Virus record (IMG/VR): IMGVR_UViG_3300030372_001090
Coordinates: 1-61,998 of that record
Strand: one strand, 5' to 3'
Length of the DNA stretch: 61,998 nucleotides
From: a virus
Lineage: Duplodnaviria > Caudoviricetes
The notes below the pieces were generated by a model. The model saw only the letters and a list, made by a program, of their open reading frames with translations, searched no databases and was not told the origin of the DNA. How positions within the stretch are numbered: position 1 is the first letter of the stretch; every line of letters starts with the position of its first letter. Positions 27,921 to 43,835 of the stretch are shown in pieces. A program made the position numbers and the translations under genes.

Positions 27921-28091
27921 TTAATCTTTAAATATAGCATAAATTTTTGCTTTTCGTGAAGACGATGTAATCTTGCCTTTGATGGTTCTTGTAGGCACTT
28001 CACAAATAAGTTCTCTACGAGGCTCTGTTTCTATAATTTGAGCCGCAGGCTCAAATTTTGGATTTTTAGAGTTCAGCTTTCTTTTCTTCAT
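27921..28091 (-). CDS. Small hypothetical protein between groEL and groES (56 aa, MKKRKLNSKNPKFEP...)
   Basis: Not in the ORF track; overlaps the groEL 3' end and stops 3 nt before groES. Confidence 0.6.
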   Translation of the reverse strand: MKKRKLNSKNPKFEPAAQIIETEPRRELICEVPTRTIKGKITSSSRKAKIYAIFKD

Positions 28092-29700
28092 CTGGTTGGT
28101 TTTGTCTTTTGTGAGTTATTATAGCATTAGTGCTAAGTATAGTTGTAGCCACACTTACTGCATTGAGCAGAGCGTTCTTAGTTACTTTCAAAGGATCAAT
28201 GACACCGAGCTTATACATATCACCATACTTGTCATTCTTAACATCGTATCCATAGTTGTATGTTCTGTCATATATAACATTAATGATCTCTGGTTTTTCT
28301 TTATTAGCATTATCTAATATCTGATTGATAGGAGCTTGGAGAGCAGTAGCTAGAATTATCTTGGCCATGTTTTCATTATCGTCTCTTCCCATGTCAGATT
28401 TTTTTAGTAATTTAGTAGATTGTCTAAATAAAGCTGTACCTCCACCACATAGTATACCCTCTTCTAATGCTGACCTGACAGCACAAACAGAGTCATCAAC
28501 CCTATCATACTTTTCTTTTTGTTCTACATCAGAGTTACCTCCAACATATATACAGCCTATGGCTCCAGCTAGACTTGCTATACGTTCATTCACAAACTCT
28601 CTCTCATGCTTTACTGTCATTCCTTTTTGCTGAACTTTCAACTCATCTATTCTTTTTTTGGTTTCTTCTGGCTTGTCATCTGTAGTAAATATTATTGTGC
28701 TGTCTAAACCTGAAACAATTTTATCTGCATGACCTAGATCCTCCATTCTAATTAAACTCAGATCATCACCAGTTTTTTCACTAAAGAACTTTGCACCTAC
28801 AGCAAAAGCTATATCGCTCATCAGCTCTGTAGACTTGTATCCAAAGTTAGGTGGTATGATATTACAAAACTTTAATCCATTACGAACTACGTTTGCAGCT
28901 AGTGTATTAATTACATTTCCTGCACACGGAGCTATAATTAATAGTTTGTCATTACTTTGTATAATTGGTTTTAGTACATTCTCAATCTGCAATACATTAC
29001 TTATCTCTGCATCACACACTAATACTTTTACATCTTCAAGAACACACTCGTCTTTCTTTTGATTATTGATAAACATATTAGATGTATATCCTCTGCCAAC
29101 TTTGATTCCGTTTGTTACCTCAGCATATGTCTCGGCTGTCATAGAGTTCTCCACAGTAACAATCCCGTTGATCCCAACCTTCTCATAGGCATCAGCAATT
29201 ATAGTTCCAATCTCTTTGTCGTTGTTTGCAGATATACAAGCAACATCTAACAACCTCTCCTGACTTACTTTCTTAGAATGTTTTTCTAGTCCTTGTATAA
29301 CTTCTTGAGTTATTTTATTTATATGTCGTATGACCTCAGTAACATTTGTGTCTTTCTGAATGTAACCCTGACCTGCTTTAACTAATGCTTCTGTTAATAC
29401 AATAGCTGTTGTCGTTCCATCTCCAGCCGTATTAGCAGTTCTATTAGCTGCGTCTTTCATCATTTGTATAGCAAGGTTCTCAATAGGATCATCCAAGAAT
29501 ACAGACTGTGCTACAGTTACTCCGTCTTTAGTTATAGTAATCCCTTTTAAATGATCGGCAGATTCTATAAGCACAGTTTTCCCTAAAGGCCCAAGCGTGC
29601 TCTTTACAGCTTTAGATATTGAAGTTATTCCTTGAATTAATTTTTGGCGAGCATCTTCGTCAAACGAAAGGTCTCTTGGGATGTATCCTTGTGATGTCAT
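28066..29700 (-). CDS. groEL: Chaperonin GroEL (phage-encoded)
   Basis: AVKSTLGP, ITKDGVTVA, AGDGTTTA, ISANND, ALEEGILCGGG, GVIDPLKV; no GGM tail. Confidence 0.97.
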   Translation of the reverse strand: MTSQGYIPRDLSFDEDARQKLIQGITSISKAVKSTLGPLGKTVLIESADHLKGITITKDGVTVAQSVFLDDPIENLAIQMMKDAANRTANTAGDGTTTAIVLTEALVKAGQGYIQKDTNVTEVIRHINKITQEVIQGLEKHSKKVSQERLLDVACISANNDKEIGTIIADAYEKVGINGIVTVENSMTAETYAEVTNGIKVGRGYTSNMFINNQKKDECVLEDVKVLVCDAEISNVLQIENVLKPIIQSNDKLLIIAPCAGNVINTLAANVVRNGLKFCNIIPPNFGYKSTELMSDIAFAVGAKFFSEKTGDDLSLIRMEDLGHADKIVSGLDSTIIFTTDDKPEETKKRIDELKVQQKGMTVKHEREFVNERIASLAGAIGCIYVGGNSDVEQKEKYDRVDDSVCAVRSALEEGILCGGGTALFRQSTKLLKKSDMGRDDNENMAKIILATALQAPINQILDNANKEKPEIINVIYDRTYNYGYDVKNDKYGDMYKLGVIDPLKVTKNALLNAVSVATTILSTNAIITHKRQNQPDEEKKAEL

Positions 29701-29726
29701 AGCAGTATATTAAATTTAATTGAACA

Positions 29727-29734
29727 CAAATATA
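29727..29734 (-). promoter_or_regulatory. Bacteroidota-type -7 promoter box for groEL (TATATTTG)
   Basis: 27 nt upstream of the groEL ATG. Confidence 0.65.
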
Positions 29735-29749
29735 ACAATTATTATTATA

Positions 29750-29967
29750 TGACAAAAGACAGAGTTTGCTTTTGTTTTTTGTATTTTATAAAATTATATA
29801 TATATTTTTTTTTATTCTATTTTATTTTGACTACTAAAAGTCTGCCATAAAAAAGTAATAAAAATATAAATAGCTGAGAAACAATAAGATAGAAAAAGTT
29901 ATATAAATAATAAACTCTGCCAAAACTCTGCCATATCTTTGTCTTTAGTTGTCATTAGTCTGTCATA
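29750..29967. repeat. Iteron-like repeats flanking an AT-rich core; candidate replication origin
   Basis: Tandem AAACTCTGCCA x2 (29912-29933); TGYCW cores at 29918, 29929, 29940, 29950, 29961; AGTCTGCCATA at 29839; inverted copy at 29750-29767. Confidence 0.55.
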
Positions 29968-29970
29968 TAC

Positions 29971-30000
29971 AAAAAAAAAGAGAAAACTTATCGTCTTCTC
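29971..30000 (-). terminator. Intrinsic terminator
   Basis: Minus strand GAGAAGAC-GATAA-GTTTTCTC followed by T9, after ORF 30034..30312. Confidence 0.7.
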
Positions 30001-30033
30001 CTTTTCACTACTAATCAAACTAAACGGGATCTT

Positions 30034-30312
30034 CTAAAAACTTTCGTACATACTATCTCCATCCATACGAAGTTTTGCTCTTTCTATTCCATCTGCTATA
30101 CTATCAATCTTGTATTGCTTTTCCATTTGCTTTCTGTATCGTGCTGCTTGAGCTATACCAGTCTCTCCATCAAAACGATCATTTATTAGTCTACCATTTT
30201 TTACATAAAGGCCTTCAACGTAATTACCCATACTATTATCTCTTTCCATATTATTTTTGTTTTTAGAACCATACGTCTTACACGGATTCATACCACAGCC
30301 ACAGTTCATCAT
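30034..30312 (-). CDS. Hypothetical protein
   Basis: 92 aa; N-terminal CGCGMNPC; GLYVKNGRLIN; variant promoter box TATCTTTA at 30325-30332. Confidence 0.7.
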   Translation of the reverse strand: MMNCGCGMNPCKTYGSKNKNNMERDNSMGNYVEGLYVKNGRLINDRFDGETGIAQAARYRKQMEKQYKIDSIADGIERAKLRMDGDSMYESF

Positions 30313-30369
30313 TTGTTTTTTTTGTAAAGATAATAAAAATATATTAGATATTCAGAGGTTGAGGATAAT

Positions 30370-30660
30370 ACACCGTCTCACGCACACGCCACGCAAACCG
30401 AAACCGATTTTTTTTTGGTGGGGGGGTTGTTGTTTTTGTGCAGTTGTTCCGTTTTTTTTGGCTTTTTGTTTTGGCTGGGCTGGGCTGGGTTGCCTGCGTC
30501 CCGCCCTGCGTCCCGTTCCCGTCCTCCGTCCTTTGTTTTGTCCTTTGCGGTGGGCTTTTCGTCCCCCGTTCCCCCGTTTGCGGTACGTTTAAAGGGTAAG
30601 CGTTCCGCATTTATGCCCGTACGAACTACACAAAAAGCAAACAAAACACGGGGAAATGTA
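30370..30660. other. GC-rich, strand-skewed non-coding island at the late/early divergence; candidate genome terminus or packaging region
   Basis: Only one A on the plus strand from 30408 to 30584; G7 run, GCTGG repeats, CCTGCGTCCCG x2, CCCCCGTT x2. Confidence 0.6.
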
Positions 30661-30733
30661 AAAAAATTTAGGGCTGTAACTTATTGAAACTCAACACATT
30701 AAAACAAAACTATAAAAAAAGTGTGCAGTTATG

Positions 30734-30764
30734 TTGCACAGTTTAAATAATTGTATTACATTTG
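30734..30764 (+). promoter_or_regulatory. First early promoter (TTG ... TACATTTG)
   Basis: -7 box at 30757-30764 and TTG at 30734-30736 with Bacteroidota-like spacing; overlapped by the palindrome TGTGCA-N7-TGCACA. Confidence 0.7.
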
Positions 30765-30802
30765 AACAATAATTAAACAAACTACTAACTAAATTTAATC
30801 AA

Positions 30803-31075
30803 ATGAAAGTAAAAAATTTTATCAGCAACAACGGAAACCCTATCGCAAATCAATTTCTAATAACAGAAAAAGATAAAGAAATTTTTCAAAGTTATAAGAG
30901 CATTATTGCCGTAAAAAACTACAAAACACAAAAAACGTATTTAGATGAATTTTACTGGGATTATTCAGTAACTACGGGAAAATATAGAAATATGTTTTTA
31001 GGTGAGGGAATTGCAGAAACTAGACAAAAGATCAAGGACGGAGTTTATAAATTAAAAAACCTAAATAAAAAATAA
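30803..31075 (+). CDS. Early hypothetical protein
   Basis: 90 aa, ANQF...FQSYKSIIA...WDYSVTTGKYRNMFL; ACTAACTAAA leader. Confidence 0.8.
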   Translation: MKVKNFISNNGNPIANQFLITEKDKEIFQSYKSIIAVKNYKTQKTYLDEFYWDYSVTTGKYRNMFLGEGIAETRQKIKDGVYKLKNLNKK

Positions 31076-31076
31076 T

Positions 31077-31484
31077 ATGAACACACAAACACACACTTAT
31101 ATTGACTCTTATGGAATGCAGAAGAGTTTAATAAATTCAGCGTTGATATATATGGAGGGCAGACAATACTATGTCCATATTGAATTGGTAGGTTATGCGG
31201 GTAATCCTGTCTATCTTATGAGAGTTGTAAGAAAAGGAAAGGAACATTTTTACAATATAGAGGCAAAAGTTGAAGGATTAGAAGACGCAACAAACAAACG
31301 TCTTTATCTTGTAATGATGGACGCAATATGTGTTAAGGGAGACAAACAGACTTCTTTTAATACCAGCCGAATTTCTCATTTATTTGAGTCATTTACAGAT
31401 ACTAGAAAAAAATACGGAGGGATAGTCTATCAAAATGGAAAAATAATGGACGGAGAATTTAAACCAAATAAAACAAACAAATGA
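31077..31484 (+). CDS. Early hypothetical protein
   Basis: 135-aa ORF in a tightly packed operon. Confidence 0.75.
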   Translation: MNTQTHTYIDSYGMQKSLINSALIYMEGRQYYVHIELVGYAGNPVYLMRVVRKGKEHFYNIEAKVEGLEDATNKRLYLVMMDAICVKGDKQTSFNTSRISHLFESFTDTRKKYGGIVYQNGKIMDGEFKPNKTNK

Positions 31485-31747
31485 AAATAATAATGACTAG
31501 AACGGAACTAGAAAAAAATCCAGATACAAAAACTACTTATTTGACAAAAGAAGTAGACACGGAAGAACTGACGGAAAAAGCATATAAACTAATAACGGGA
31601 GATGATACACTCAAATGGTTTAGACGTTTAGGCGGTACAGAAACGGCTCAAAAATCATATACATGTAGAGGGTACAACATAACCCGCTTAACATCTATAA
31701 GTCCCGACAGACAAACAAAAATAGTAAGAACCTTTAAATTCCAATAA
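31481..31747 (+). CDS. Early hypothetical protein
   Basis: 88 aa; ATGA overlap with the upstream gene. Confidence 0.75.
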   Translation: MKIIMTRTELEKNPDTKTTYLTKEVDTEELTEKAYKLITGDDTLKWFRRLGGTETAQKSYTCRGYNITRLTSISPDRQTKIVRTFKFQ

Positions 31748-31748
31748 T

Positions 31749-31931
31749 ATGAACATAATTGAACTAAGAAAACTAATATTTGAACTTCAAAAAGATCCGA
31801 TCGGCAACGAAAAACTTATTAAATTTTATCAGCAAAAAGACAAAGAACTAATAAATAAACTTAATAAGGAAATAAACGAAAAATTAAAAACTTTAAGTCC
31901 GTTTATTAGCCATAGATACAACGTAAGGTAA
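31749..31931 (+). CDS. Early hypothetical protein
   Basis: 60 aa; its stop codon lies inside hammerhead stem I. Confidence 0.65.
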   Translation: MNIIELRKLIFELQKDPIGNEKLIKFYQQKDKELINKLNKEINEKLKTLSPFISHRYNVR

Positions 31932-31982
31932 TTCTGATGAGTCCAAAAGGACGAAACGGGGCAAATTTGCCCCGTCAATTAC
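31928..31982 (+). ncRNA. Type I hammerhead self-cleaving ribozyme
   Basis: Stem I GUAAUU/AAUUAC; core CUGAUGA; stem II GUCC-AAAA-GGAC; GAAA; stem III ACGGGGCA/UGCCCCGU; GUC cleavage triplet (cut after C31976). Confidence 0.93.
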
Positions 31983-32000
31983 TAACTAAATTAAATTAAA

Positions 32001-32300
32001 ATGAAAATAGATATGAAAAAAAGATTAAAGAAAATTGAAGGCACAGAATATTGGAGAGCATTCAAAAATCTAGAAGTTACTAGCGTTAGATACTTTGAGA
32101 CTAGACGGGGACACGGCTATGAATGTAAAACAAACATTAATGACATTTCAATATGGAATGACGGAATGGGTGGCGGGACTTATCTTGCTTTTAGAGGAAA
32201 TAAAAACGCATTTCCTGAATTTGAAAAATATACTGAAAGGGATTTAGAAATTTTAATAGATGATTATGAAATTGATGAGTTTAATTACGGAGAAATGTAA
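32001..32300 (+). CDS. Early hypothetical protein
   Basis: 99 aa, VRYFETRRG...IWNDGMGGGTY; directly downstream of the ribozyme. Confidence 0.75.
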   Translation: MKIDMKKRLKKIEGTEYWRAFKNLEVTSVRYFETRRGHGYECKTNINDISIWNDGMGGGTYLAFRGNKNAFPEFEKYTERDLEILIDDYEIDEFNYGEM

Positions 32301-32329
32301 AAAAACTTTCACAATTAAAAATAATTGAC

Positions 32330-32337
32330 TATATTTG
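32330..32337 (+). promoter_or_regulatory. Second early promoter -7 box (TATATTTG)
   Basis: Context AAATAATTG..TATATTTGAACAA is nearly identical to the first early promoter. Confidence 0.7.
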
Positions 32338-32368
32338 AACAAATTTTACTAATTAAATTAAACACAAA

Positions 32369-32539
32369 ATGAATATATATAGAGATAAAAACGGATATTT
32401 AGTGATAGAGGACGTTTTGGGCGGAGAGTATAAAATGCTAAGATATTTATACTACTCTAAGAGAGACGCAATAAAATTATTTAAGCAAGAATATAAAGAA
32501 TTCTATCATAAAAACGGACACAAAAAATCTTGGCTATGA
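32369..32539 (+). CDS. Early hypothetical protein (56 aa, MNIYRDKNGYLVIEDV...)
   Basis: Not in the ORF track; TACTAATTAAA leader. Confidence 0.7.
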   Translation: MNIYRDKNGYLVIEDVLGGEYKMLRYLYYSKRDAIKLFKQEYKEFYHKNGHKKSWL

Positions 32540-32694
32540 AGATAAAAAGAAAAGAAGTAAAGCTATGGTTAGGCAATAGCTATGAAGATTGGATAGAAGA
32601 CTTAATTTTCAGACTACTAAACAATAAGGTTTCTGTCAAAGAAATCAAAGAGGAAGTAAAGCTAATGTATAAAGATTATATAAATAAAAATTAA
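32536..32694 (+). CDS. Early hypothetical protein (52 aa, MKIKRKEVKLWLGNSY...)
   Basis: Not in the ORF track; ATGA overlap. Confidence 0.65.
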   Translation: MKIKRKEVKLWLGNSYEDWIEDLIFRLLNNKVSVKEIKEEVKLMYKDYINKN

Positions 32695-32699
32695 ATTAT

Positions 32700-32909
32700 A
32701 TGAAACAGAGAAATGAATTAGACACACTAGAACACAATATTAACTTTTGGAAAAAAGTTGTAAAAATACAAGAACAAAAAATTAAAGAAGAAGTTTTTTA
32801 CTTTCCAATATCTTGGACTGAATATCTACACGCAAAAAGACAACTTGAAAGAGTTGAGAGAAAATACGGAACTACTGAAATTTGGGAGATTAGGGACTTG
32901 CACCGATAA
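32700..32909 (+). CDS. Early hypothetical protein
   Basis: 69-aa ORF. Confidence 0.7.
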   Translation: MKQRNELDTLEHNINFWKKVVKIQEQKIKEEVFYFPISWTEYLHAKRQLERVERKYGTTEIWEIRDLHR

Positions 32910-32996
32910 TTTATTTGTTGTGTTTCTGTGATTAGCTGAGGTTGAAATAGCCCTCAGCTTTTCGCAGTAGAAGACAATACTAACTAAACAAATAAA
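32910..32996 (+). promoter_or_regulatory. Long intergenic stem-loop (processing site or attenuator candidate)
   Basis: TTTATTTGTT/AACAAATAAA, CTGTGA/TCGCAG and AGCTGAGG/CCTCAGCT pairings. Confidence 0.55.
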
Positions 32997-33001
32997 AGCA
33001 A

Positions 33002-33292
33002 ATGGAAATAAAATTTAATGAAATAAATAATAAAGCGAAAATAAGTATAATTAAATATCAGCCCCAGTTAAGTAAAAGGGCAACATATTTTATAGACGAA
33101 AGTAGTTGGCTAAAAGTATTAAGAAAGAGAATGGCTGAAGACATTAAAATTAACGGAACATCTGATCAATTTTTAATGGACGAATGTTATCAAATAGGAG
33201 AGGCAACAGAAATAGAATTTCCTTTGTCTGAAGCAAAAAGATTAATAGTTGAATTGTTAAACATAAATAACAAAAACTATGGAGACGAATAA
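33002..33292 (+). CDS. Early hypothetical protein
   Basis: 96-aa ORF. Confidence 0.7.
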   Translation: MEIKFNEINNKAKISIIKYQPQLSKRATYFIDESSWLKVLRKRMAEDIKINGTSDQFLMDECYQIGEATEIEFPLSEAKRLIVELLNINNKNYGDE

Positions 33293-33473
33293 ATATATAG
33301 TTTGGGTAGGAGGAACACCAAATTATTTTAATTCTTTACTTGAAGCCCAAGCCGAAGTTTTAAAATGGATAGATAAAGGTTATGATGATATTAAAACAGA
33401 AAGAATAATACACACAATAGAAAAAAATAATAACTATGATGACGACTACAACAAAATGGGAAACATATTTTGA
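33279..33473 (+). CDS. Early hypothetical protein
   Basis: 64 aa, YIVWVGG...WIDKGYDD. Confidence 0.7.
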   Translation: METNKYIVWVGGTPNYFNSLLEAQAEVLKWIDKGYDDIKTERIIHTIEKNNNYDDDYNKMGNIF

Positions 33474-33900
33474 TGTTTCTGAATATATACACAAAGAAAT
33501 AGATTACTTTCAAAGAGATAAACAAGAGTTTCTTGTTAGTATATTATGGGACGAAGACAGAAAACCGTCTGATGTTACTGATAAAGAAATTGAAGATCAT
33601 TTTCTTAATGATTATTATATAGGAGAAAACCATTGGGAGTTTTTTAAAGAAGATTTAAATGAAGAATTTAAAAAACATATAGGCAAGACAATTTATGTTG
33701 AGGGAAAAAATATGGGGTGGAGAAATAGAACTGGATATAAAGAGTTTGAATTAAAAAAAGGAGAAGATATATTTAGAGAGATTGCTCCTGAATGTGAATT
33801 AACTTATTATATTAAAAAAGAAAAAGAGGGAGAGTATGAGGTAAAGATTAGCCACCACGATAGTCCGATGGGAGAATATTATAACATTAAAATTAAATAA
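33436..33900 (+). CDS. Early hypothetical protein
   Basis: 154 aa, acidic, MGWRNRTGY...SHHDSPMGE. Confidence 0.75.
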   Translation: MMTTTTKWETYFDVSEYIHKEIDYFQRDKQEFLVSILWDEDRKPSDVTDKEIEDHFLNDYYIGENHWEFFKEDLNEEFKKHIGKTIYVEGKNMGWRNRTGYKEFELKKGEDIFREIAPECELTYYIKKEKEGEYEVKISHHDSPMGEYYNIKIK

Positions 33901-33902
33901 AT

Positions 33903-34019
33903 ATGAAAACAAATTATGATAAACTGTTTAATGTATTAATTGAATGGTATAACGAAAAACAAATTGATGAAATTTGGGAACTATTAAAAAAATACGATAA
34001 AACAATTAAAACTAAATAG
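33903..34019 (+). CDS. Early hypothetical protein (38 aa)
   Basis: Not in the ORF track; MKTNYDKLFNVLIEWYNEK...; fills the gap exactly. Confidence 0.55.
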   Translation: MKTNYDKLFNVLIEWYNEKQIDEIWELLKKYDKTIKTK

Positions 34020-34021
34020 AT

Positions 34022-34432
34022 ATGAAAAAATTTAAAACACCAATTCCATTATGGAGAGAAATGACAAAAGACGATAGAGAAGATTTAATAGACAATTATA
34101 TAGAATGGATAAGAACAGATTGTTCTTCTCCATATTGCGAGGTAAGATGGCTCGTAGATCAGTTGTTGCATAGCAAACACGAACTAGATATGATCCAAAT
34201 TCTGAAAGATACAACAGAATGCTATTATATAGACGATAACAGAATTTCAGATTATGTAATATATGATAGGGCAAACAATAGTTTGGTAAGATTTAATGAA
34301 AGCGGAGAGATTATATTGTATGGAGATAAAGAAGAAGCAGTTGAAAATTGTTATGGTAACGAGGAAGTAATACAATTTGATAAATTACCAAAAGACAAAC
34401 AAAAAGAAATTATTAATCAATTAAATAAATAA
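34022..34432 (+). CDS. Early hypothetical protein
   Basis: 136-aa ORF. Confidence 0.7.
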   Translation: MKKFKTPIPLWREMTKDDREDLIDNYIEWIRTDCSSPYCEVRWLVDQLLHSKHELDMIQILKDTTECYYIDDNRISDYVIYDRANNSLVRFNESGEIILYGDKEEAVENCYGNEEVIQFDKLPKDKQKEIINQLNK

Positions 34433-34436
34433 AAAA

Positions 34437-34739
34437 ATGATAAAATTATATATAAGCACATTAGCTTTTGGCTTTGGAATATTAGCTGGAATTCAATTAG
34501 AAAGATTTGAACAAAAATATTCAAGCAACGCATACGTTGTAAGTTTTATAAATGAATTTGAGGGTTTTCAATTAGATATGCACGAGGACGTTTGGAACGG
34601 GAGAATAGATAGCGTTCCCGCAAGTTACTACTTGCATAATTTTGAAGTTATACTCCACGATCTAAGGAACGATCCGTCTGGATATACTTCATGGTATTGG
34701 GAGACAATGGATACTGATTATGGGCGTAAAAATAAATAG
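34437..34739 (+). CDS. Hypothetical membrane-anchored or secreted protein
   Basis: N-terminal hydrophobic segment LYISTLAFGFGILAGI. Confidence 0.65.
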   Translation: MIKLYISTLAFGFGILAGIQLERFEQKYSSNAYVVSFINEFEGFQLDMHEDVWNGRIDSVPASYYLHNFEVILHDLRNDPSGYTSWYWETMDTDYGRKNK

Positions 34740-34747
34740 TATCTTTG
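34740..34747 (+). promoter_or_regulatory. Bacteroidota-type -7 promoter box (TATCTTTG)
   Basis: Intergenic, about 10 nt before ATG 34758. Confidence 0.55.
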
Positions 34748-34757
34748 TAAGAAAAGC

Positions 34758-35624
34758 ATGAAAAAGTTTATTATATCTTCTGAGTTAAGCACGGATAACT
34801 TTACTAATAAAATAATATTAGTAAGAAACAGTATGCAAATTATAGAATCAAAAGAGAATCCAATTAAGGATATTCAAGATAATTTAAATGATTATGTTTT
34901 TACAATAGCAAAAGTAAATGTAAAAGCGTTAGTAAATATACCTATTGATGATTGGGATAGTAACGAAGTATTTATAAAAAATGCTTTTATCAAATTAAGA
35001 AAATCAAATATATCGGGTTATATAATTCATTACGATAGTTGTTCTGAGATTTGGTATGACGATCACGGGAGCGATATGAGAGTTACTGTTAAAGTGAAAG
35101 AAATTAATGACAACGATAGTGTAGTTGTTTCTCCTATGATGACAAATGAATTGTATACTTTAAATGATATAGTCTCTATGAATCTTTTAAATAATTTATG
35201 GGAAGTTACTCAGTTGTATGAAGAATACAAGTTTAAAGAATTAGGATATTTTATAGACAACAGAAGTTATTTTGAACTTAATTCTGATGAATATAATAAT
35301 CATATGTCTAAATTGTGGAGCTACGAGTACGAGAGAGAAGTTGATAATATAGAAAATACTTATATCTATCAAAATGAAACTTACAATTCTATTAAAGCAT
35401 TTACAAAGGAAGACAAAATGCGATTTAATATAGGCATGTATCCCGTGTCCTACTTCTTTACACAAGAAAAGTTAGATTATAATGATTATGATTTGAAAAC
35501 GGGAGATTTAATTACCTACACCAATAAACAATATATAGACGGAGAGCATAAAGAACAAGCATTATTAGTAATGGTTATTAGATCGGAAGATGATCTTCAA
35601 GATTTTTTTTCAACAAAACTTTGA
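34758..35624 (+). CDS. Hypothetical protein
   Basis: 288 aa, N/D/Y-rich, with its own promoter box. Confidence 0.75.
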   Translation: MKKFIISSELSTDNFTNKIILVRNSMQIIESKENPIKDIQDNLNDYVFTIAKVNVKALVNIPIDDWDSNEVFIKNAFIKLRKSNISGYIIHYDSCSEIWYDDHGSDMRVTVKVKEINDNDSVVVSPMMTNELYTLNDIVSMNLLNNLWEVTQLYEEYKFKELGYFIDNRSYFELNSDEYNNHMSKLWSYEYEREVDNIENTYIYQNETYNSIKAFTKEDKMRFNIGMYPVSYFFTQEKLDYNDYDLKTGDLITYTNKQYIDGEHKEQALLVMVIRSEDDLQDFFSTKL

Positions 35625-35674
35625 TTTAATCAAAAATTGTTGTAATATTACACTCTAATTAAACTAAATTTAAA

Positions 35675-35845
35675 ATGGATAAACTAACGGCTCAAGAAGA
35701 AAGAGAGTATAATCATTTAAAGCGTCAGCTTTTTGATCAGAAATCTTTTATTGAAATGGATTTTGTTTCTAATCAGTTATTACTAAACAGATATAACGAA
35801 TTAGCAAACAAGAAATCCAAAAGCGTATTAACAAAAACTTGTTAG
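35675..35845 (+). CDS. Hypothetical protein (56 aa, MDKLTAQEEREYNHLK...)
   Basis: Not in the ORF track; A-rich leader. Confidence 0.65.
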   Translation: MDKLTAQEEREYNHLKRQLFDQKSFIEMDFVSNQLLLNRYNELANKKSKSVLTKTC

Positions 35846-35852
35846 TGTGTAT

Positions 35853-36067
35853 GGAAGTTAATGTTAGGCGAGATCAACAACGTAATAAGAAACTGTATGG
35901 CGGGTTTCTTTCTTCCTAAAAAAGGTTTGGGTGGTAACGTAGTGAGTTCCCGAGTTGGAATTTATAAAATCTACAAACGGCAGGATAAAGCAAAATATCT
36001 AAGTACAATTACAGCTTTAAAGATAGTGCACGATTGAGACGATATAGTACCACACCTGCCCAACCTT
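35853..36067 (+). ncRNA. Candidate structured intergenic RNA
   Basis: Several nested complementary segments and a possible pseudoknot (see findings). Confidence 0.35.
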
Positions 36068-36091
36068 ATTTATTAACTTAATAATGTAAAA

Positions 36092-36268
36092 ATGGATAAA
36101 GAATACAGAAAATTTTTAAGCAATTACAAGTACAGAGTTTTAGATTACAACAGTTGGAGCGAGTATGTAAAGAATGAGTACAATAAGATGAGGGAAAAAA
36201 ACCTCAAAACAAGACAAAGAAAAGAAAGAAAGCAGTTAAAAGACACCCCAATAAATTTTAATTGGTAA
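36092..36268 (+). CDS. Hypothetical protein (58 aa, MDKEYRKFLSNYKY...)
   Basis: Not in the ORF track; TAATG coupling to the next gene. Confidence 0.65.
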   Translation: MDKEYRKFLSNYKYRVLDYNSWSEYVKNEYNKMREKNLKTRQRKERKQLKDTPINFNW

Positions 36269-36465
36269 TGGAAGTATATCTTGTAAGCAGATGTTGTGGA
36301 GACACCTTTGAAGAGGTAGAAATTATAGAAGATTGGAATAATCAATACATTTGTTCTGATTGCGGAGAGTATTGCGATACTATGACAAATTATGATTACG
36401 GAGAATTAGTAAGATACGATAGAGATGAAGCAATGGAAGATGAAAGAAGAGCATTCAGAAGATGA
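36268..36465 (+). CDS. Small zinc-ribbon protein
   Basis: SRCCG...ICSDCGEYC; start moved to ATG 36268. Confidence 0.7.
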   Translation: MEVYLVSRCCGDTFEEVEIIEDWNNQYICSDCGEYCDTMTNYDYGELVRYDRDEAMEDERRAFRR

Positions 36466-36599
36466 AAGAAATACACGACATGATCTTAAAAGAAAAGATG
36501 AAAGAGAAACCTAACAAAAGATTTATACAATGGTTGCAAAGGTTGAATCAAGACATCTTAAAAAAAATTATAATAAACAGTTATAAAGGGAGGGAATAA
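36462..36599 (+). CDS. Hypothetical protein (45 aa, MKEIHDMILKEKMKEKPNKRFIQWLQ...)
   Basis: Not in the ORF track; ATGA overlap. Confidence 0.6.
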   Translation: MKEIHDMILKEKMKEKPNKRFIQWLQRLNQDILKKIIINSYKGRE

Positions 36600-36724
36600 T
36601 CCCATTAATTAACGGGTACAGCCCATATATTAAATGTTTGCCCTTTATATTAAGGGGGGAGTTAAAAAGGCGATTTTGCCGTAACAGTTAATACTATTAG
36701 CTTTCCCCTTATAAATTAAATTAA

Positions 36725-37003
36725 ATGAAAAGACTATCACAATATCTAGTTGATAAACTTAGATCTGAACAACATCTAAGAAACTACAATAAAGCAAATA
36801 GATTAGACACTATTGAAATGAATAATTATTTCAAAGAGTGCGATAAAATAGAAATAAAAGGTAGATTTGTATCTGCCTGTAAATACGCTTTGCCTATACC
36901 TCAAAGGGTAATTATCAAAAATGATATGAGCAAGTATAAATTAAATAAACAACTAACAGAAGAATATATAAATAGATATGAAAGAAATAAGAAAAACTCC
37001 TAA
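36725..37003 (+). CDS. Hypothetical protein
   Basis: 92-aa ORF with an AAATTAAATTAA leader. Confidence 0.7.
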   Translation: MKRLSQYLVDKLRSEQHLRNYNKANRLDTIEMNNYFKECDKIEIKGRFVSACKYALPIPQRVIIKNDMSKYKLNKQLTEEYINRYERNKKNS

Positions 37004-37304
37004 CTACTATATAGGAAAAAATGAGTATGAAGCCATAGAGGTTATATACGGATTTTCCTGTTCATTCAATGTGGGTAACGCAGTTACTTATTTATTAAGA
37101 GCTGGAAAAAAAGGAGAGGAAGGTATGACTCAACTAGCCAAGCATATAGAGGATATAGAGAAAGCAATACATCATTTGCAAAAGGAAATAAACTTTCTTC
37201 ACATTGACGATCTAATGAAAAAAGGAATGAGTTATAAGAAGGCAAAAGAAACAATAGAAAAAATTAATCAATTAAAAAAAGAAAATGAAAAGAGAAATAT
37301 TTGA
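36978..37304 (+). CDS. DUF3310-like protein
   Basis: PNYY...EAIEVI...FNVGNAVTYLLRAGKKG...EDIEKAIHHL. Confidence 0.75.
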   Translation: MKEIRKTPNYYIGKNEYEAIEVIYGFSCSFNVGNAVTYLLRAGKKGEEGMTQLAKHIEDIEKAIHHLQKEINFLHIDDLMKKGMSYKKAKETIEKINQLKKENEKRNI

Positions 37305-37578
37305 TAAATATGCTACGGCAATAGCTGATAGGTTTCATCTTACTCTAGATGAAATGTTTAGTAAAACAAAAAAAAGAGAAATAGTAGACGCAAGACAAAT
37401 GCTTTACTTTTTGTCTAGAGAAAGACCAATAAGAATTTCATATATACAAAAATTTATGGAAGACAACGGGCATATTGTTACTCATTCCACAATTATACAT
37501 GGTTATAATAAAGCTAAAGAATCTGTTGACAACGATCAAGACTATGCTGACGTTATTAATCAAATAAAAAATGTATAA
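37285..37578 (+). CDS. DnaA C-terminal (domain IV)-like HTH protein
   Basis: SKTKKREIVDARQMLYFLSRE...HSTIIHGYNK matches the Bac_DnaA_C pattern. Confidence 0.75.
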   Translation: MKREIFDKYATAIADRFHLTLDEMFSKTKKREIVDARQMLYFLSRERPIRISYIQKFMEDNGHIVTHSTIIHGYNKAKESVDNDQDYADVINQIKNV

Positions 37579-37987
37579 CATAATAGATATATATAAACAA
37601 GCTATGAATGATGACGCTATGAAAATAGTAAGACATGATAATGTGAGCTATATAAACGTAGGCGTTAAGATAAGTAAGTTTCCAAGTAAAACAGAAATAC
37701 TTAATTGTTCAAGAAACGGAGATTACTTTCAAGAAATATCTAGCGATGAATATAATATGTTCTACAATAATGGGTGGGAGGCAGGTTGTATTATTCTTGC
37801 AATATCTAACTGTGTTAGAAAACTAAAAATGATACAACAAAAAATGCAGGAAGAAGTTAATTCAAGAAAAAACGATAAGTTTATCAAAAACTTAAAAACA
37901 AAACGGGAGTTTGTTATGAAAAGATATTCTTATTATACACAAAAACTAATTAAACTAAAAAATCATGACAAAATTAAAAACAGTTAA
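37571..37987 (+). CDS. Hypothetical protein
   Basis: 138-aa ORF overlapping both neighbours. Confidence 0.7.
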   Translation: MYNIIDIYKQAMNDDAMKIVRHDNVSYINVGVKISKFPSKTEILNCSRNGDYFQEISSDEYNMFYNNGWEAGCIILAISNCVRKLKMIQQKMQEEVNSRKNDKFIKNLKTKREFVMKRYSYYTQKLIKLKNHDKIKNS

Positions 37988-38492
37988 TATAAAAGGTAAA
38001 GAATATGTTGAAGTTAATACAAGACTCAAGTTCTTTAGAGAAGTATATCCCGAGTTTACTTTGGATACTGAGATCATAGAAATTACAGAAGATACCATAA
38101 CAATGAAAGCCATAATTCTTAACGAAGAGGGTAGATTGATTGCTTCGGGTACGGCAAAAGAAAGAAGTGGATCTTCGTTTATAAACAAAACATCATATGT
38201 AGAGAATTGCGAAACCTCAGCGTGGGGTAGAGCATTAGGTAATTTTGGAATCGGGTTGGATACGGCTGTTGCGTCTGCGGACGAAGTTTCAAATGCCATC
38301 TTAAATGAAAAGAAAAAACCCACAACACCTACTAGATTAGAGTTAGTAGTTGATGATGAAAATTGGGGTAAAGTATTAAGCTATCTAGCTGATAATAAAG
38401 CTCTTGGCTTAGACAAGTTAGTAAAAAACTTAGAACAAAAGTATACTATAAAAGCCACAGTCAAAAAGGAATTGTCAAAACATCTTAAGTAA
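37965..38492 (+). CDS. Single-strand annealing protein (Rad52/Sak-like)
   Basis: KGKEYVEVNTR...INKTSYVENCETSAWGRALG; adjacent to an exonuclease. Confidence 0.65.
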   Translation: MTKLKTVNIKGKEYVEVNTRLKFFREVYPEFTLDTEIIEITEDTITMKAIILNEEGRLIASGTAKERSGSSFINKTSYVENCETSAWGRALGNFGIGLDTAVASADEVSNAILNEKKKPTTPTRLELVVDDENWGKVLSYLADNKALGLDKLVKNLEQKYTIKATVKKELSKHLK

Positions 38493-39235
38493 TGGTAGAA
38501 TCAAAATTAACTTTAGACCTTAAAAAATTAAAAGAGGACAAATATTATTATGGAGATTTTGGAAGACAATGGCTATCTAATTCTGATATAAGACATCTGC
38601 TGAATGATCCTAGAAAATTTAGGCAACCTCAAGAAGAAACCAAAGCAATGCTAGAAGGAAGGTTTTTTCATACAGCTATGTTAGAAAAAGAAAAGCTAGA
38701 TAGTTATACATTACTAGACGTATCTAGCCGAAATACAAAAGCATACAAAGAATATTATGCAGAACATAATAAGATGGCTCTGCTAACACAGGAGGCACAT
38801 AATATATTAGATGTTGTAGACGCAATGAAATTAAATGTAGAGATGTACGAAACTATATATGACAAAACAAATGAGTATGAAGTCCCTATGATAAAAAATA
38901 TTATGGGTCTTGATTGGAAGGGTAAAGCTGATATTGTTTGTCAAGACAAACTTATAGATCTGAAGACAACCTCAGATATAAATAAATTTAAGTATAGTGC
39001 TAGAAAATACAACTATGATAGTCAAGCGTATATCTATCAAGAGTTGTTTGGTTTACCACTAGAGTTTTATGTAGTTGATAAAACAACATATCAATTAGGT
39101 ATATTTACGCCAACTGATGAGTTTTTAGAAAAAGGTAAAGAAAAAGTAGAAGACGCAGTCTTTATTTATAATACTTTCTTTTCTGAAAACGCAGTAGAAG
39201 ATATAAATCAAATTATTATACACGAAACATTATAA
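38492..39235 (+). CDS. PD-(D/E)XK exonuclease (RecE/DUF3799-like)
   Basis: LSNSDI, GRFFHTAMLE, KGKADIV, IDLKTT, YDSQAYIY. Confidence 0.85.
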   Translation: MVESKLTLDLKKLKEDKYYYGDFGRQWLSNSDIRHLLNDPRKFRQPQEETKAMLEGRFFHTAMLEKEKLDSYTLLDVSSRNTKAYKEYYAEHNKMALLTQEAHNILDVVDAMKLNVEMYETIYDKTNEYEVPMIKNIMGLDWKGKADIVCQDKLIDLKTTSDINKFKYSARKYNYDSQAYIYQELFGLPLEFYVVDKTTYQLGIFTPTDEFLEKGKEKVEDAVFIYNTFFSENAVEDINQIIIHETL

Positions 39236-39289
39236 AACAGTAGAAGTTCCAACTACTATTTTTTGGAACAATTAATTAAATAAAATAAT

Positions 39290-39541
39290 ATGGATAAAAA
39301 AATTTATGTAGGTAGCGGGACTGAAAAGTTTGACGGCAACCTAGTTTCTTGCAGTTTATGTTTAACTGATCTTCCTGCTGAACACATTTTTGAGTATAGT
39401 GGAAAGAAATATATTAAGCTAAATGTTCAGAAGAAACAGCAAGCTGATGAGTATGGCAAGACTCATTATGTTGCTGTTGACACATGGAAGCCAGAGCCAA
39501 AGAAAGAGCAGGCTACAAAAGAAGAGGACTTGCCGTTCTAA
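39290..39541 (+). CDS. Putative single-stranded DNA-binding protein
   Basis: 83 aa, GKKYIKLNV...DEYGKTH; acidic C-terminal tip EEDLPF. Confidence 0.6.
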   Translation: MDKKIYVGSGTEKFDGNLVSCSLCLTDLPAEHIFEYSGKKYIKLNVQKKQQADEYGKTHYVAVDTWKPEPKKEQATKEEDLPF

Positions 39542-39549
39542 TAATTGTT

Positions 39550-39658
39550 AGGCACTATAAGGGTAGCCCACAACGGGCGAATAATTTTATTAACCATATT
39601 AAATCTTAATTTGCGTTTCATAAATTTTAAATGTTAAGCCTTTATAGTGCCTTTTTTT
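39550..39658 (+). terminator. Long stem with a large loop followed by a T-run
   Basis: AGGCACTATAAGGG pairs with CCTTTATAGTGCCT, followed by TTTTTT. Confidence 0.5.
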
Positions 39659-39669
39659 CAACAAAAGAA

Positions 39670-42051
39670 ATGGAGATAACTATATTTAAAGACATTAAAA
39701 ACACATCGCAACCTTTTTACAGAAACGTAGAGGTAGTTTTAACAAGAATAGAGCAGGGTAATTCTAAAGATATTGTTAAGAAGATAAGGTCTGAAAGAGA
39801 TAAAGAAAAAAGAAACGAATTAAAAAAACTATTACCTGCTATTTGTTTTAGCGGAAAATTTACAAAGCGTAATGACTCATCCCTCACTCAGCATAGTGGC
39901 TTGATATGTCTAGATTTTGATGGGTACAAATCAAATAAAGAGTTACTTGAAGAAAAAGAAAAATTAGCTAAAGACAAATATATATTTGCAGTTTTTATTT
40001 CGCCTAGCGGTAAAGGTTTAAAGGCATTAGTTAAAATACCTGAAGATCTAGACAACCATAAAAATTATTTTAATTCTCTTAATAAACATTTTAATTCTGA
40101 TTATTTTGATACTACGTCTAAAAATGTATCAAGGGTTTGTTATGAGAGTTACGATCCATTAATTTTTATAAACTTTACATCTAGTCTTTGGGATAAGATA
40201 GACGCACCAGATTTTGTAGAATTCAACAAATACAAAGACAAGCCAACCATTCCTGTAACTGATGAAAACAAAATAGTTGAAATACTTTTAAAGTGGTGGG
40301 AAGGTAAGTACGGCTTAAGAGATGGAGAGAGAAATAATAATGTATATATACTAGCTGCGGCTTTTAATGATTTTGGAGTGCCAAAAAATTTAGCAGAGTA
40401 TGTCATGAGTAACTTTGACAGTAAAGATTTTTCTTCACAAGAAATTAAAAGAACAATAGACTCAGCTTATGCACAGGTACAAAACTTTGGAACAAAATAC
40501 TATGAAGATGAGGATAAAGTTAATCAAGTAAAACAACAACTAAGAAGAGGTGTATCAAAAAAAGAAATCCGATGTCAGTTAGAAGACGAAAATATTGATG
40601 TCGGAGATATTGATAATGTTATAGTTCGTCTAGAGGAAGAGCAGTCTAATTATAAGTTTTGGACTAAGAACGAAAAGGGAGTAATAAAAATAGTACACAT
40701 CTTATTCAAAAACTTTTTAGAAGACAATGGGTTTTATAAGTTTAATCCTGAAGGAAGTAAGAGTTATGTTTTTGTTAGGGTAACTAATAATTTAATAGAC
40801 CACACGACAGAAAAAGAAATAAAAGATTTTGTTTTAACTTATTTATTATCTGTTGACGACCTCTCTGTTTACAATTACTTTGCTGAACACACTAGATATT
40901 TTAGAGAAGAATTTTTGACATTGCTTTCTTCAATAAATGTATTTTTTATTGCCGACACAAAAGACACAGCTTATTTATATTATATGAATTGTGCAGTTAA
41001 AATAAACAAAAGCGAAATTGTGCTTATAGATTATTTAGATTTAGGTGGATATGTTTGGAGAGATCATGTTATTGATAGAAATTTTACCTTATGTAAAGTT
41101 GGCGAATGTGATTATAAAACTTTTATATCTAATATATGTGGAGAAGATAAGAGTAGAATTGACTCAATGGAATCTACCATTGGTTATTTGTTACACGGCT
41201 GGAAAAATTTATCCTATTGTCCCGCAGTTATATTAAATGATGAGGTTATATCAGACAACCCTGAAGGTGGTACGGGTAAGGGTTTGTTTATGAATGGTAT
41301 ATCTAAAATGAAAAAGAATGTTACCATAGATGGTAAGAGTTTTACTTTTGAAAGATCGTTTGCTTATCAGTTAGTTTCTGCTGATACACAAATACTTTGC
41401 TTTGATGATGTAAAAAAATCCTTTGACTTTGAAAGATTATTTAGCGTTATAACTGAAGGATTGACTTTAGAAAAGAAAAACAAAGACGCAATAAAAATAC
41501 CATTTGCAAAATCTCCAAAGGTGGCTTTGACAACTAACTATGCTATAAAAGGTAAGGGCTCATCGTTTGAAAGAAGAAAGTGGGAATTAGAGTTGGCTCA
41601 GTATTATACCAAAGACTTTACTCCTTTAGTTGAGTTTGGTAAATTAATGTTTGGAGAATGGGATGATAACGAATGGTGTCAGTTTGATAATTATATGATT
41701 AAAAATTTACAAATGTATCTTGAGCATGGATTATTGAAAAGTCAGTTTGTTAATCTAAAAGTAAGGCTTCTTATAGCAGAGACAGACCATGTATTTATAG
41801 AGTGGTGCGGACTCATTGGAAGCGGATCTATAAATGATAAATTAAAACCAAACACTAGAATATATAAACCTGATCTTTATACAGATTTTATTGAAGACAA
41901 CCCTGACTTTGCACCCAAGTCTAGATTTACAGTCTCAAGAATTAAATTTTATCAATGGATAAAAGCCTTTTGTTTGTTTTATTACAAGGTTGAGGCTCAA
42001 GAGGGTAAAGACTTAGGCGGAAGATATTTTATTTTTGAAAAGAATGATTAA
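39670..42051 (+). CDS. Primase-helicase (BT4734/VirE-N primase + PriCT + SF3 helicase)
   Basis: KKLLPAICFSG, HSGLICLDFD, FISPSGKGLK, SRVCYESYDP; GERNN; Walker A GGTGKG and Walker B ILCFDD; start moved to ATG 39670. Confidence 0.85.
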   Translation: MEITIFKDIKNTSQPFYRNVEVVLTRIEQGNSKDIVKKIRSERDKEKRNELKKLLPAICFSGKFTKRNDSSLTQHSGLICLDFDGYKSNKELLEEKEKLAKDKYIFAVFISPSGKGLKALVKIPEDLDNHKNYFNSLNKHFNSDYFDTTSKNVSRVCYESYDPLIFINFTSSLWDKIDAPDFVEFNKYKDKPTIPVTDENKIVEILLKWWEGKYGLRDGERNNNVYILAAAFNDFGVPKNLAEYVMSNFDSKDFSSQEIKRTIDSAYAQVQNFGTKYYEDEDKVNQVKQQLRRGVSKKEIRCQLEDENIDVGDIDNVIVRLEEEQSNYKFWTKNEKGVIKIVHILFKNFLEDNGFYKFNPEGSKSYVFVRVTNNLIDHTTEKEIKDFVLTYLLSVDDLSVYNYFAEHTRYFREEFLTLLSSINVFFIADTKDTAYLYYMNCAVKINKSEIVLIDYLDLGGYVWRDHVIDRNFTLCKVGECDYKTFISNICGEDKSRIDSMESTIGYLLHGWKNLSYCPAVILNDEVISDNPEGGTGKGLFMNGISKMKKNVTIDGKSFTFERSFAYQLVSADTQILCFDDVKKSFDFERLFSVITEGLTLEKKNKDAIKIPFAKSPKVALTTNYAIKGKGSSFERRKWELELAQYYTKDFTPLVEFGKLMFGEWDDNEWCQFDNYMIKNLQMYLEHGLLKSQFVNLKVRLLIAETDHVFIEWCGLIGSGSINDKLKPNTRIYKPDLYTDFIEDNPDFAPKSRFTVSRIKFYQWIKAFCLFYYKVEAQEGKDLGGRYFIFEKND

Positions 42052-43276
42052 GTTTAGAGACTATCAAGTAGATATTATAAATAAAGCGTTAGGCATTTTA
42101 TTTGCTCACGGCTTTGTATACTTAGCTATGGAAGTTAGAACAGGCAAGACCCTTACAAGTTTAGGAATTGCAAACAGAACGCCTTGTTCTAATCTTTTGT
42201 TCCTTACAAAAAAGAAAGCTATCTCTAGTATTCAAGAAGATTATGACTTGTTAAATCCTGAGTATAATATTACTGTAATAAATTACGAATCTATACACAA
42301 GATAAAACAAACGGGTTGGGATGTAGTTGTTTGCGATGAAGCTCATACTCTTGGTGCGTTTCCTAAGCCAAACAAAAGAGCACGACAAGTCAAAGAGATA
42401 CTTACAAGATCCGCACCACTTGTTATTTTATTGAGCGGTACTCCTACTCCAGAGTCTTACAGTCAAATGTTTCATCAGCTCTATGGGATACAAGGTAGCC
42501 CTTTCAAAAAATTTAAAAACTTTTATGCTTTTGCCAGAGTATATGTTAATGTCACACAGCGTAAAATAAATAGTTTATTTATTAATGATTACTCAAAAGG
42601 TTTACAGTCTATCATAGACGATGTTGCTCCTTATAAAATTAATTATACGCAAAAGATGGCAGGTTTTAAAACAGAAACTAACGAAAAAATACTTTATGTA
42701 GAATTAGAGGAAAAAACCAAATCGTTGATAAGTAGAGTAAAAAAAGACAGAGTTATTGAGGGTAAAGAGGAATTGTTGCTGGCTGATACTCCAGCTAAAC
42801 TTATGACTAAAGTTCATCAAATGTGTTCTGGTACAGTTAAGTTTGAAAGTGGTAACTCCATTACTTTAGATTACAGCAAAGCAAAATTTATACACAATTA
42901 TTTTAAAAATGAAAAAATAGCTATCTTTTATAAGTTTACTCAAGAATACAAAGCATTGAAAGAAATATTTAACGACAAGATTACCAACGATTTACAAGAG
43001 TTTAAGACGACAGATAAATGTATTGCTTTACAAATTGTTTCAGGAAGAGAGGGAATTAGTTTGAGACAGGCAACAAGTTTAGTCTATTATAATATTGATT
43101 TTAGTGCTACATCTTATTGGCAAAGTAGAGATAGAATGACAACAAAAAATAGAGAGACCAATAATATATTTTGGATTTTCAGTCAAGATGGAATTGAAAA
43201 AGATATCTACAAAGCTGTTGTTAAAAAGAAGGATTACACCCTTTCACATTTTAAAAGAGATTTATTAGATTTGTAG
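42044..43276 (+). CDS. SF2 (SNF2-like) helicase
   Basis: FRDYQ, VRTGKT, VCDEAH, LSGTP, GREGISL, QSRDR; start moved to ATG 42044. Confidence 0.85.
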   Translation: MIKFRDYQVDIINKALGILFAHGFVYLAMEVRTGKTLTSLGIANRTPCSNLLFLTKKKAISSIQEDYDLLNPEYNITVINYESIHKIKQTGWDVVVCDEAHTLGAFPKPNKRARQVKEILTRSAPLVILLSGTPTPESYSQMFHQLYGIQGSPFKKFKNFYAFARVYVNVTQRKINSLFINDYSKGLQSIIDDVAPYKINYTQKMAGFKTETNEKILYVELEEKTKSLISRVKKDRVIEGKEELLLADTPAKLMTKVHQMCSGTVKFESGNSITLDYSKAKFIHNYFKNEKIAIFYKFTQEYKALKEIFNDKITNDLQEFKTTDKCIALQIVSGREGISLRQATSLVYYNIDFSATSYWQSRDRMTTKNRETNNIFWIFSQDGIEKDIYKAVVKKKDYTLSHFKRDLLDL

Positions 43277-43277
43277 T

Positions 43278-43517
43278 ATGACTGAGCAGCAGATACAGAA
43301 TAAACGCATAGCTCAGTTAGAGAGCCAAGGTTACTATGTTATTAAACTAACAGTAACAAATAAAAACGGAATTCCAGATCTAATTGCAATACCTCACGGG
43401 TCTAAAGTTTTGTTTTCAGAAATTAAAAAACCAAAAGGTAAGCTCTCAGCTTTACAAAAATTTAGAATAAAAGAACTTGAAGAACACGGAATACAGACAG
43501 AAATATATAGAGGCTAA
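43278..43517 (+). CDS. VRR-NUC domain nuclease
   Basis: EQQIQ, GIPDL, FSEIK, GKLSALQ. Confidence 0.85.
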   Translation: MTEQQIQNKRIAQLESQGYYVIKLTVTNKNGIPDLIAIPHGSKVLFSEIKKPKGKLSALQKFRIKELEEHGIQTEIYRG

Positions 43518-43812: not shown

Positions 43813-43835
43813 TTAGGATAAGTCATTTTTTTGTT

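Follow-up and report, generated by a model that had tools for sequence, protein, structure and literature searches.

Judging from its sequence, the segment at 31928-31982 on the plus strand of the phage genome analysed here is a genuine, unannotated type I hammerhead ribozyme, typical of those found in phages, and self-cleavage is predicted for it. We consider it likely that this ribozyme lies in an early plus-strand transcript and cuts that transcript after C31976, separating the two halves of an operon. We infer cleavage in vivo, the extent of the transcript, and the effect of the cut on stability and translation.

The DNA analysed (the window) is an entire virus record of 61,998 b. The portal, the large terminase, the primase-helicase and the virion proteins identify it as a tailed phage. 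Its terminase matches 87 phage records, 68 of them from Flavobacterium, 15 from Cellulophaga, two from Tenacibaculum and one from Maribacter, with one unclassified. The best terminase match is MW202828.1, at 72% identity, and the Elemovirus phages of Flavobacterium reach 45%. The genome is thus that of a ~62 kb marine podophage of the Flavobacterium/Cellulophaga phage group. MW202828.1 itself gives no match to RF00163 or RF00008; what it has in common with the window is the replication genes and none of the early small ORFs, so the position of the ribozyme is not comparable there. Elsewhere in the window, a minus-strand gene at 28066-29700 encodes a GroEL-like chaperonin of 544 aa, and in related records the corresponding place is annotated with GroEL and a 10-kDa co-chaperonin.

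Sequence, fold and statistical support for the ribozyme

Read along the plus strand, 31928-31982 is GUAAUU-CUGAUGA-GUCC(AAAA)GGAC-GAA-ACGGGGCA(AAUU)UGCCCCGU-C-AAUUAC (Table 1). Helices I, II and III comprise 6(+1), 4 and 8 pairs, respectively; helices II and III are capped and helix I is open, which makes the hammerhead a type I ribozyme. With the Rfam family RF00163 (clan CL00010) it shares an identical core, the closing pairs, the GUC cleavage triplet and the open helix I. Cleavage by a hammerhead leaves a 2',3'-cyclic phosphate on the upstream product and a 5'-OH on the downstream product, as described in PMC8782182.

Table 1. Features of the ribozyme and its surroundings, with positions in the window.
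Feature	Position	Strand	Basis or remark
Type I hammerhead ribozyme, complete	31928..31982	+	sequence, RF00163, model R1, fold, descriptor versus shuffles
Helix I	GUAAUU 31928-33 with AAUUAC 31977-82	+	sequence; G31927-U31983 possible extra pair
Hammerhead core CUGAUGA	31934-40	+	sequence; C3-U4-G5-A6-N7-G8-A9
Helix II hairpin GUCC-AAAA-GGAC	31941-52	+	sequence; closing pair G-C
GAA	31953-55	+	sequence; G12-A13-A14
Helix III hairpin ACGGGGCA-AAUU-UGCCCCGU	31956-75	+	closing A15.1-U16.1 pair is A31956-U31975
C17	C31976	+	sequence; H17, not G
Predicted self-cleavage site, 3' of C17	31976..31977	+	hammerhead rule on RF00163 and R1 alignments
A/U-rich 24-nt leader of the predicted downstream product	31977..32000	+	ACTAACTAAA at 31981-90, 10 nt before ATG
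60-aa ORF upstream of the ribozyme	31749..31931	+	TAA stop at 31929-31 within the helix I 5' strand
99-aa ORF downstream of the ribozyme	32001..32300	+	starts 24 nt past the predicted cut
ORFs of 90, 135 and 88 aa, tightly packed	30803..31747	+	would share a transcript with the 60-aa ORF
Promoter-like box TACATTTGAAC	30757..30767	+	ahead of the block's first ORF; the ribozyme-carrying transcript may start here
Promoter-like box, second copy TATATTTGAAC	32330..32340	+	8 nt before leader motif ACTAATTAAA of ORF 32369

A search with Rfam hammerhead models, as proposed by the first-pass annotation, gave a divided answer. RF00163 (Hammerhead_1) aligned over model positions 1-45 of 45 with 32.6 bits and was the sole Rfam match at E<=1 in the window (E 3e-4, for the entire window and 4227 families). 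The same window searched at Rfam gathering thresholds gave no match, the site falling 1.4 bits short of the 34-bit cut-off of RF00163, and a standard annotation run would therefore miss it. In the RF00163 alignment, helix III carries a 14-nt insertion and helix I is A/U-rich relative to the model consensus.

A covariance model of other phage copies was more favorable. A MAFFT alignment of 89 copies (A1) put the 3' strand of helix III in the wrong place, and no model was built on it; instead, model R1 was built on a gap-free subset, A2, of 22 other phage type I hammerheads, with the window excluded. R1 scored the site at 41.2 bits (E about 1e-10). The runner-up in the window reached just 13.1 bits (E 0.19), which means that the genome holds one hammerhead, and a good one.

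The predicted fold and the pattern statistics point the same way. Over 76 nt, folding to minimum free energy gives the three-way junction, at -22.8 kcal/mol (z -4.35), and none of 200 shuffles was equally stable. Folded in a context of 191 nt, the three-way junction is still the minimum-free-energy structure, and the centroid structure lacks the weak helix I. A strict descriptor, defined as the core plus at least 5, 3 and 4 pairs in helices I, II and III, matches the window at a single site and has no match in 500 dinucleotide shuffles, whereas a relaxed version matches 31 of the 500. A still looser pattern, CTGANGA...GAAA...TH, was discarded as a source of further candidates: it gave 42 overlapping matches against 14 expected, and the helices form at the ribozyme site only.

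Minimal hammerheads cleave slowly at cellular Mg2+. In our reading of the sequence, helix I contains no internal loop and the AAAA loop has no pseudoknot partner, and no contact of loop II with helix I or its flank is apparent. This lack of an identified tertiary contact, the Rfam score below gathering level and the single copy in the genome would all fit a chance look-alike or a decayed, inactive copy. We nevertheless regard such an origin as extremely improbable in view of the strict descriptor's absence from the 500 shuffles, the window-wide E value over all families and the R1 score; the core is moreover free of any deviation, and all changes in the ribozyme of a related contig, L172 (below), are neutral.

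A second way to discount the ribozyme would be to let the helix III hairpin, 8 bp long and G+C-rich, act without cleavage as a terminator, an attenuator or a stability hairpin. There is indeed a terminator-like call on the minus strand, at 31976-31955, which we rejected because it is helix III read backwards and antisense to the gene block. On the plus strand no intrinsic terminator was called at the ribozyme, and the hairpin is followed by CAAUUACUAAC, with no U-run. Since a role confined to the hairpin would also leave the exact CUGAUGA and GAAA core, helices I and II and the model scores unexplained, we hold it to be very improbable.

The claim that prompted this analysis, of an intact hammerhead with all core nucleotides and three stems, thus stands: the sequence is identical to the one claimed, and the R1 score and the compensatory changes described below support it. 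The cut that had been predicted between 31976 and 31977 likewise follows from the hammerhead rule applied to both the RF00163 and the R1 alignments.

Gene context, predicted transcript and leader

From 30803 to 45153 every ORF is on the plus strand, with many small ORFs first and the replication genes after them; judging from this layout, we take the block of small ORFs to be early genes. The four ORFs preceding the ribozyme are separated by gaps of +1, -4 and +1 nt, and the ribozyme fills the 69-nt gap between the 60-aa and 99-aa ORFs, among phage genes of the same strand and close to a start codon. The 90-aa and 88-aa ORFs belong to PHROG families of unknown function, and neither of the ORFs flanking the ribozyme, of 60 and 99 aa, has a match in Pfam or PHROG. 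Hypothetical genes from three Pelagibacter phages match the region of the 90-aa ORF (30780-31053) at 68-91% nucleotide identity. These matches were set aside as relatives of the ribozyme, as they cover at most 8% of the query and leave the ribozyme untouched. The 90-aa ORF may represent a small gene that phages of different hosts have in common, the structural genes pointing to Flavobacteriia phages.

Upstream of the ribozyme we found no convincing plus-strand terminator; the single call, at 31197-31210, is a weak 5-pair hairpin inside an ORF. Together with the block of same-strand ORFs, this makes a cut within a polycistronic early transcript the natural reading, and it bears out the earlier proposal that the ribozyme, which is on the coding strand amid same-strand small ORFs, is placed to cut an early polycistronic mRNA. 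Two further points of that proposal were also correct: the upstream stop codon (TAA, 31929-31931) is inside helix I, and a cut after 31976 would leave the 99-aa gene, whose ORF starts at 32001, with a 24-nt leader.

Our model is as follows. Once the 55 nt are transcribed, the three-way junction would fold and the RNA would cut itself after C31976. The upstream product would carry the 90-, 135-, 88- and 60-aa ORFs and end in a 2',3'-cyclic phosphate directly behind the G+C-rich 8-bp hairpin of helix III; as the ribozyme is of type I, nearly all of it would remain on this product. The downstream product would begin with a 5'-OH, followed by an unstructured, A/U-rich leader of 24 nt and the 99-aa ORF. 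Helix I, which is short (6 bp) and A/U-rich, should allow the two products to separate. Each half of the operon would then likely have a stability and a translation rate of its own, with no need of a terminator or promoter.

The leader contains a motif, ACTAAYTAAA, that occurs seven times in the window (20580, 30784, 31981, 32348, 32979, 37945 and 46709) against 1.9 expected. Six of the seven copies sit 9-13 nt ahead of the ATG of an ORF, so the motif behaves as a leader element before start codons and, on this distribution, looks like a translation-start leader element of the phage. Most genes that follow gaps of at least 50 nt are preceded by similar A/U-rich strings, and by eye no Shine-Dalgarno-like sequence is apparent upstream of these genes.

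A scan of the window with the sigma-70 consensus gave 36 sites, no better than the 35.7 found in shuffles. A different candidate is the box TAnnTTTGAAC (TANNTTTGAAC), which the window matches exactly at just two places, 30757 and 32330. This box is similar to the Bacteroidota -7 promoter element, as would suit a phage of this host group. The same resemblance is seen in a longer promoter-like box, AATAATTG..TA..TTTGAACAA, two copies of which lie ahead of leaders, at 30745-30769 and 32318-32342. The first-pass annotation had described the leader motif as one also found at promoter-generated 5' ends. This may apply to only two copies of ACTAAYTAAA, at 30784 and 32348, which follow the promoter-like box. 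The leader that the ribozyme would make, AAUUACUAACUAAAUUAAAUUAAA-AUG, resembles the leader after the second box, UUUUACUAAUUAAAUUAAACACAAA-AUG, and as a description of the sequences "mimicry" of a promoter-made leader seems fair.

Two other non-coding elements lie near the ribozyme-carrying block. The minus-strand genes end near 30.0 kb and give way to a non-coding G+C-rich stretch of 360 nt. This stretch (30340-30700), locally G+C-rich, separates the divergent gene blocks and contains long T/G and C runs as well as short direct repeats (CCTGCGTCCCG, twice; GGCTGGGCTG-like, twice). An alignment over 29202-30815, which spans it, has 96% identity to L172. The stretch may be an origin or have a regulatory role. 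Further downstream, at 32934-32959, a hairpin of AGCUGAGG and CCUCAGCU is followed by UUUCG, just ahead of the leader of ORF 33002. Although uncalled by the consensus scan, it may be a weak terminator between early transcription units.

Relatives of the ribozyme and of the genes around it

Homologues of the 99-aa ORF were found at 11 viral loci and 79 metagenome loci. None of the 11 viral loci has an Rfam match at E<=1. In the metagenome set, R1 finds hammerheads at 11 of the 79 loci and none in the flanks examined of the other 68. No relatives of the 135-aa or the 60-aa ORF turned up in viral contigs, and tblastn of the 99-aa ORF against the phage collection gave no match.

Two of the related contigs are close to the window. 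L171 is 99.9% identical to window positions 29501-34797 and has the same ribozyme, and therefore represents the same phage population. L172 is a contig of a related phage, with 87-96% nucleotide identity to the window. Its ribozyme differs at two of the 55 positions, both changes being neutral for the structure (in loop II an A is replaced by G, and in helix III a C by U, so that a G-C pair becomes G-U). The ORF upstream of the ribozyme is kept, at 61 aa and with synonymous changes in its last codons. The homology between the window and L172 runs through this ORF, the ribozyme and the leader and ends at the ATG, behind which L172 has a different ORF of 116 aa; its homologue of the 99-aa gene comes later and is not preceded by a ribozyme. 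This arrangement indicates that the ribozyme goes with the upstream gene and the leader and not with the 99-aa gene.

With the window, the copies from 8 metagenome loci form a lineage of 12 distinct ribozymes, the other 11 being in L172, L176, L178 (three), L180, L181 (two), L183, L203 and L204. The core and C17 are invariant in all 12. Helix I is GUAAUU/AAUUAC in two copies and GUAAAU/AUUUAC in 10, so that both sides have changed in one compensatory swap. The second pair of helix II occurs as four pair types, and helix III has several compensatory changes. In A2, 12 of 15 pairs change on both sides. The helices are thus backed by compensatory changes in related copies, in the lineage and in A2 alike; the copies were picked by a pairing descriptor, which makes their 100% pairing circular, although the variety of pair types is not. 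Ten of the 12 copies have the ATG 24-27 nt past the predicted cut, and one has it at 31 nt; the 116 nt scored for the twelfth are due to the ORF-length filter.

The exchange of the gene behind the ribozyme in L172 raises the question of whether the ribozyme and its leader serve mainly as a conserved unit of ~80 nt at which downstream genes are swapped by recombination, with cleavage secondary. The lineage copies do share helix I and the leader and differ in helices II and III, and two or three of them occur on one contig in L178 and L181. Yet the basis for this is one mosaic junction, and at another junction of the same comparison (L172 1591-2500 versus window 30792-32060), where L172 lacks the 90- and 135-aa ORFs, the break falls at a plain A-rich leader and ATG with no ribozyme. 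As the intact catalytic core in 12 of 12 copies argues for selection on catalysis, we find a role mainly in recombination distinctly unlikely.

We next placed the locus among phage type I hammerheads at large. The class set comprises 151 viral-contig loci, at least 120 from a scan for the core with a GUCC/GGAC helix II and the rest from another search, with copies extracted by descriptor; among the matches listed, it gave at least 146 different copies of type I, each flanked by 200 nt or more. The counts that follow are to be read with frames measured stop to stop, with many copies coming from the same or related contigs, and with seeds that favored a single helix II sequence. Of the 146 copies listed, 124 have an open frame of 50 codons or more upstream that ends between -150 and +4 of C3. 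In 93 of these 124 frames the stop lies at -12 to +1 of C3, that is, in the 5' strand of helix I or in the core's own UGA; the peaks are at -3 (25 frames), +1 (23) and -8 (20), another 12 frames end at -30 to -13, and 19 end further off. Downstream, an ATG-ORF with a minimum of 50 codons starts no more than 200 nt from the cut in 132 of the 146 listed copies (median 31 nt, with 52 copies at 20-29 nt). Helix I has 6 bp in 121 of the 146, and 74 of the 146 combine a stop overlap with an ATG at 10-50 nt. Measured against these listed copies, the ribozyme of the window, with its stop at -5, its ATG at +24 and a helix I of 6 bp plus a G-U pair, is typical.

Among viral contigs with an exact GUCC-AAAA-GGAC core (L133-L163), most of the 33 carry, by eye, type III hammerheads. 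There the layout is a terminator-like hairpin, then the type III hammerhead, then an ATG 20-30 nt later, and the ribozyme stays on the downstream RNA.

The recurrent stop overlap suggests a translation-coupled switch, in which the cut would be made only when the upstream gene is not translated, tying downstream expression to upstream translation. A ribosome that terminates at UAA 31929-31 would sit over both helix I and the core, which would bring translation into competition with folding. The footprint of a ribosome is such that it would reach the core from stops at the positions seen, which are those of the 93 of 124 listed frames in the class and of all 11 scorable copies of the lineage, whose frames end at -5 to -16 (at -5 in five, -11 in three, -16 in two and -9 in one; one copy is unscorable). 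However, tight gene packing by itself predicts an overlap of stop and ribozyme and accounts for the layout equally well: helix I is free to hold a stop, and the core supplies a UGA, which 23 of the 124 listed frames use. The helix I UAA is moreover present in all lineage copies and is the actual stop in just five of the 11 with a scorable upstream ORF. On balance we assign the switch a low probability and prefer self-cleavage of the early transcript as such.

One extension of that preferred reading, offered tentatively because we consider it unlikely, is that the ribozyme and its leader of fixed length form a portable, promoter-independent "cistron-start cassette". Such a cassette would place a 5'-OH 24-27 nt before the AUG, serve as the joint for swaps of downstream genes, and travel with the upstream gene. 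Bacteroidota ribosomes generally do not rely on Shine-Dalgarno pairing, and to initiate afresh inside an operon they might require a free 5' end of this unstructured kind.

Comparison with known phage hammerheads and significance

The general background given in the first-pass annotation, that hammerheads have been reported in phages, agrees with the literature. In PMC3088659 (Perreault et al. 2011), hammerheads of phages and prophages are described as flanking genes and as cleaving within in vitro transcripts of ~2 kb. Like the ribozyme of the window, these are intergenic and sit among small phage genes of the same strand, and a part in the processing of long transcripts was proposed for them; that proposal of 2011 (PMC3088659) was repeated in a 2019 review (PMC6765202). 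Relative to the hammerheads described there, the window differs in having a single copy and no array, and in its host group, marine Flavobacteriia phages.

The HHphage ribozyme of the haloviruses HF1 and HF2 is a parallel in position, lying shortly upstream of an early-gene start codon, and a mapped 5' end falls at most 3 nt from the hammerhead cut, as reported in PMC3088659. It is, however, a variant hammerhead of an archaeal virus and precedes the first gene of its transcript by 13 nt, whereas the ribozyme of the window is canonical and lies 24 nt before an internal gene.

A second comparison comes from the phage group of the window itself. Flavobacterium phage vB_FspP_elemoA_13-1A contains an unannotated type III hammerhead on the minus strand of MT497065.1, at 18489-18545 (L169 4490-4546), which scores 36.3 bits with RF00008 (E 8.7e-8), below the 48.5-bit cut-off. 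It belongs to the same group (terminase 45%) and, as in the window, is in the early region, ~20 nt before an ORF start; it sits just past a divergent intergenic region. In contrast to the window, the ribozyme is circularly permuted and would stay on the downstream product, and the positions of the two are not homologous.

RAGATH-1 (RF03152) resembles the ribozyme of the window in its long helix III with a 4-nt loop, and part of its upstream loop (AGCCA) matches. We rejected membership in that family, given a score of 29 bits against a cut-off of 56.3 and two of four upstream-hairpin pairs being non-standard.

Among the matches listed in our literature search, no paper links hammerheads to Flavobacterium or Cellulophaga phages, and a literature search on stop codons at the intergenic hammerheads of prophages found nothing relevant. 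In its main text, PMC3088659 makes no mention of stop codons, ribosomes or translation; its supplement may list copies of the lineage or stop overlaps. The ribozyme of the window joins a kind that has been known from phages since 2011, and the locus leaves knowledge of hammerheads themselves unchanged. It adds marine Flavobacteriia phages to the groups that carry hammerheads, and it illustrates that genuine phage hammerheads are narrowly missed by standard Rfam thresholds.

The role of self-cleaving ribozymes in phages is still open, according to the review PMC6765202. This locus offers a simple test case for that role, with one ribozyme, one short operon, a near-constant spacing to the start codon (24-27 nt in 10 of 12 copies) and a closely related phage in which another gene has taken the place behind the ribozyme.
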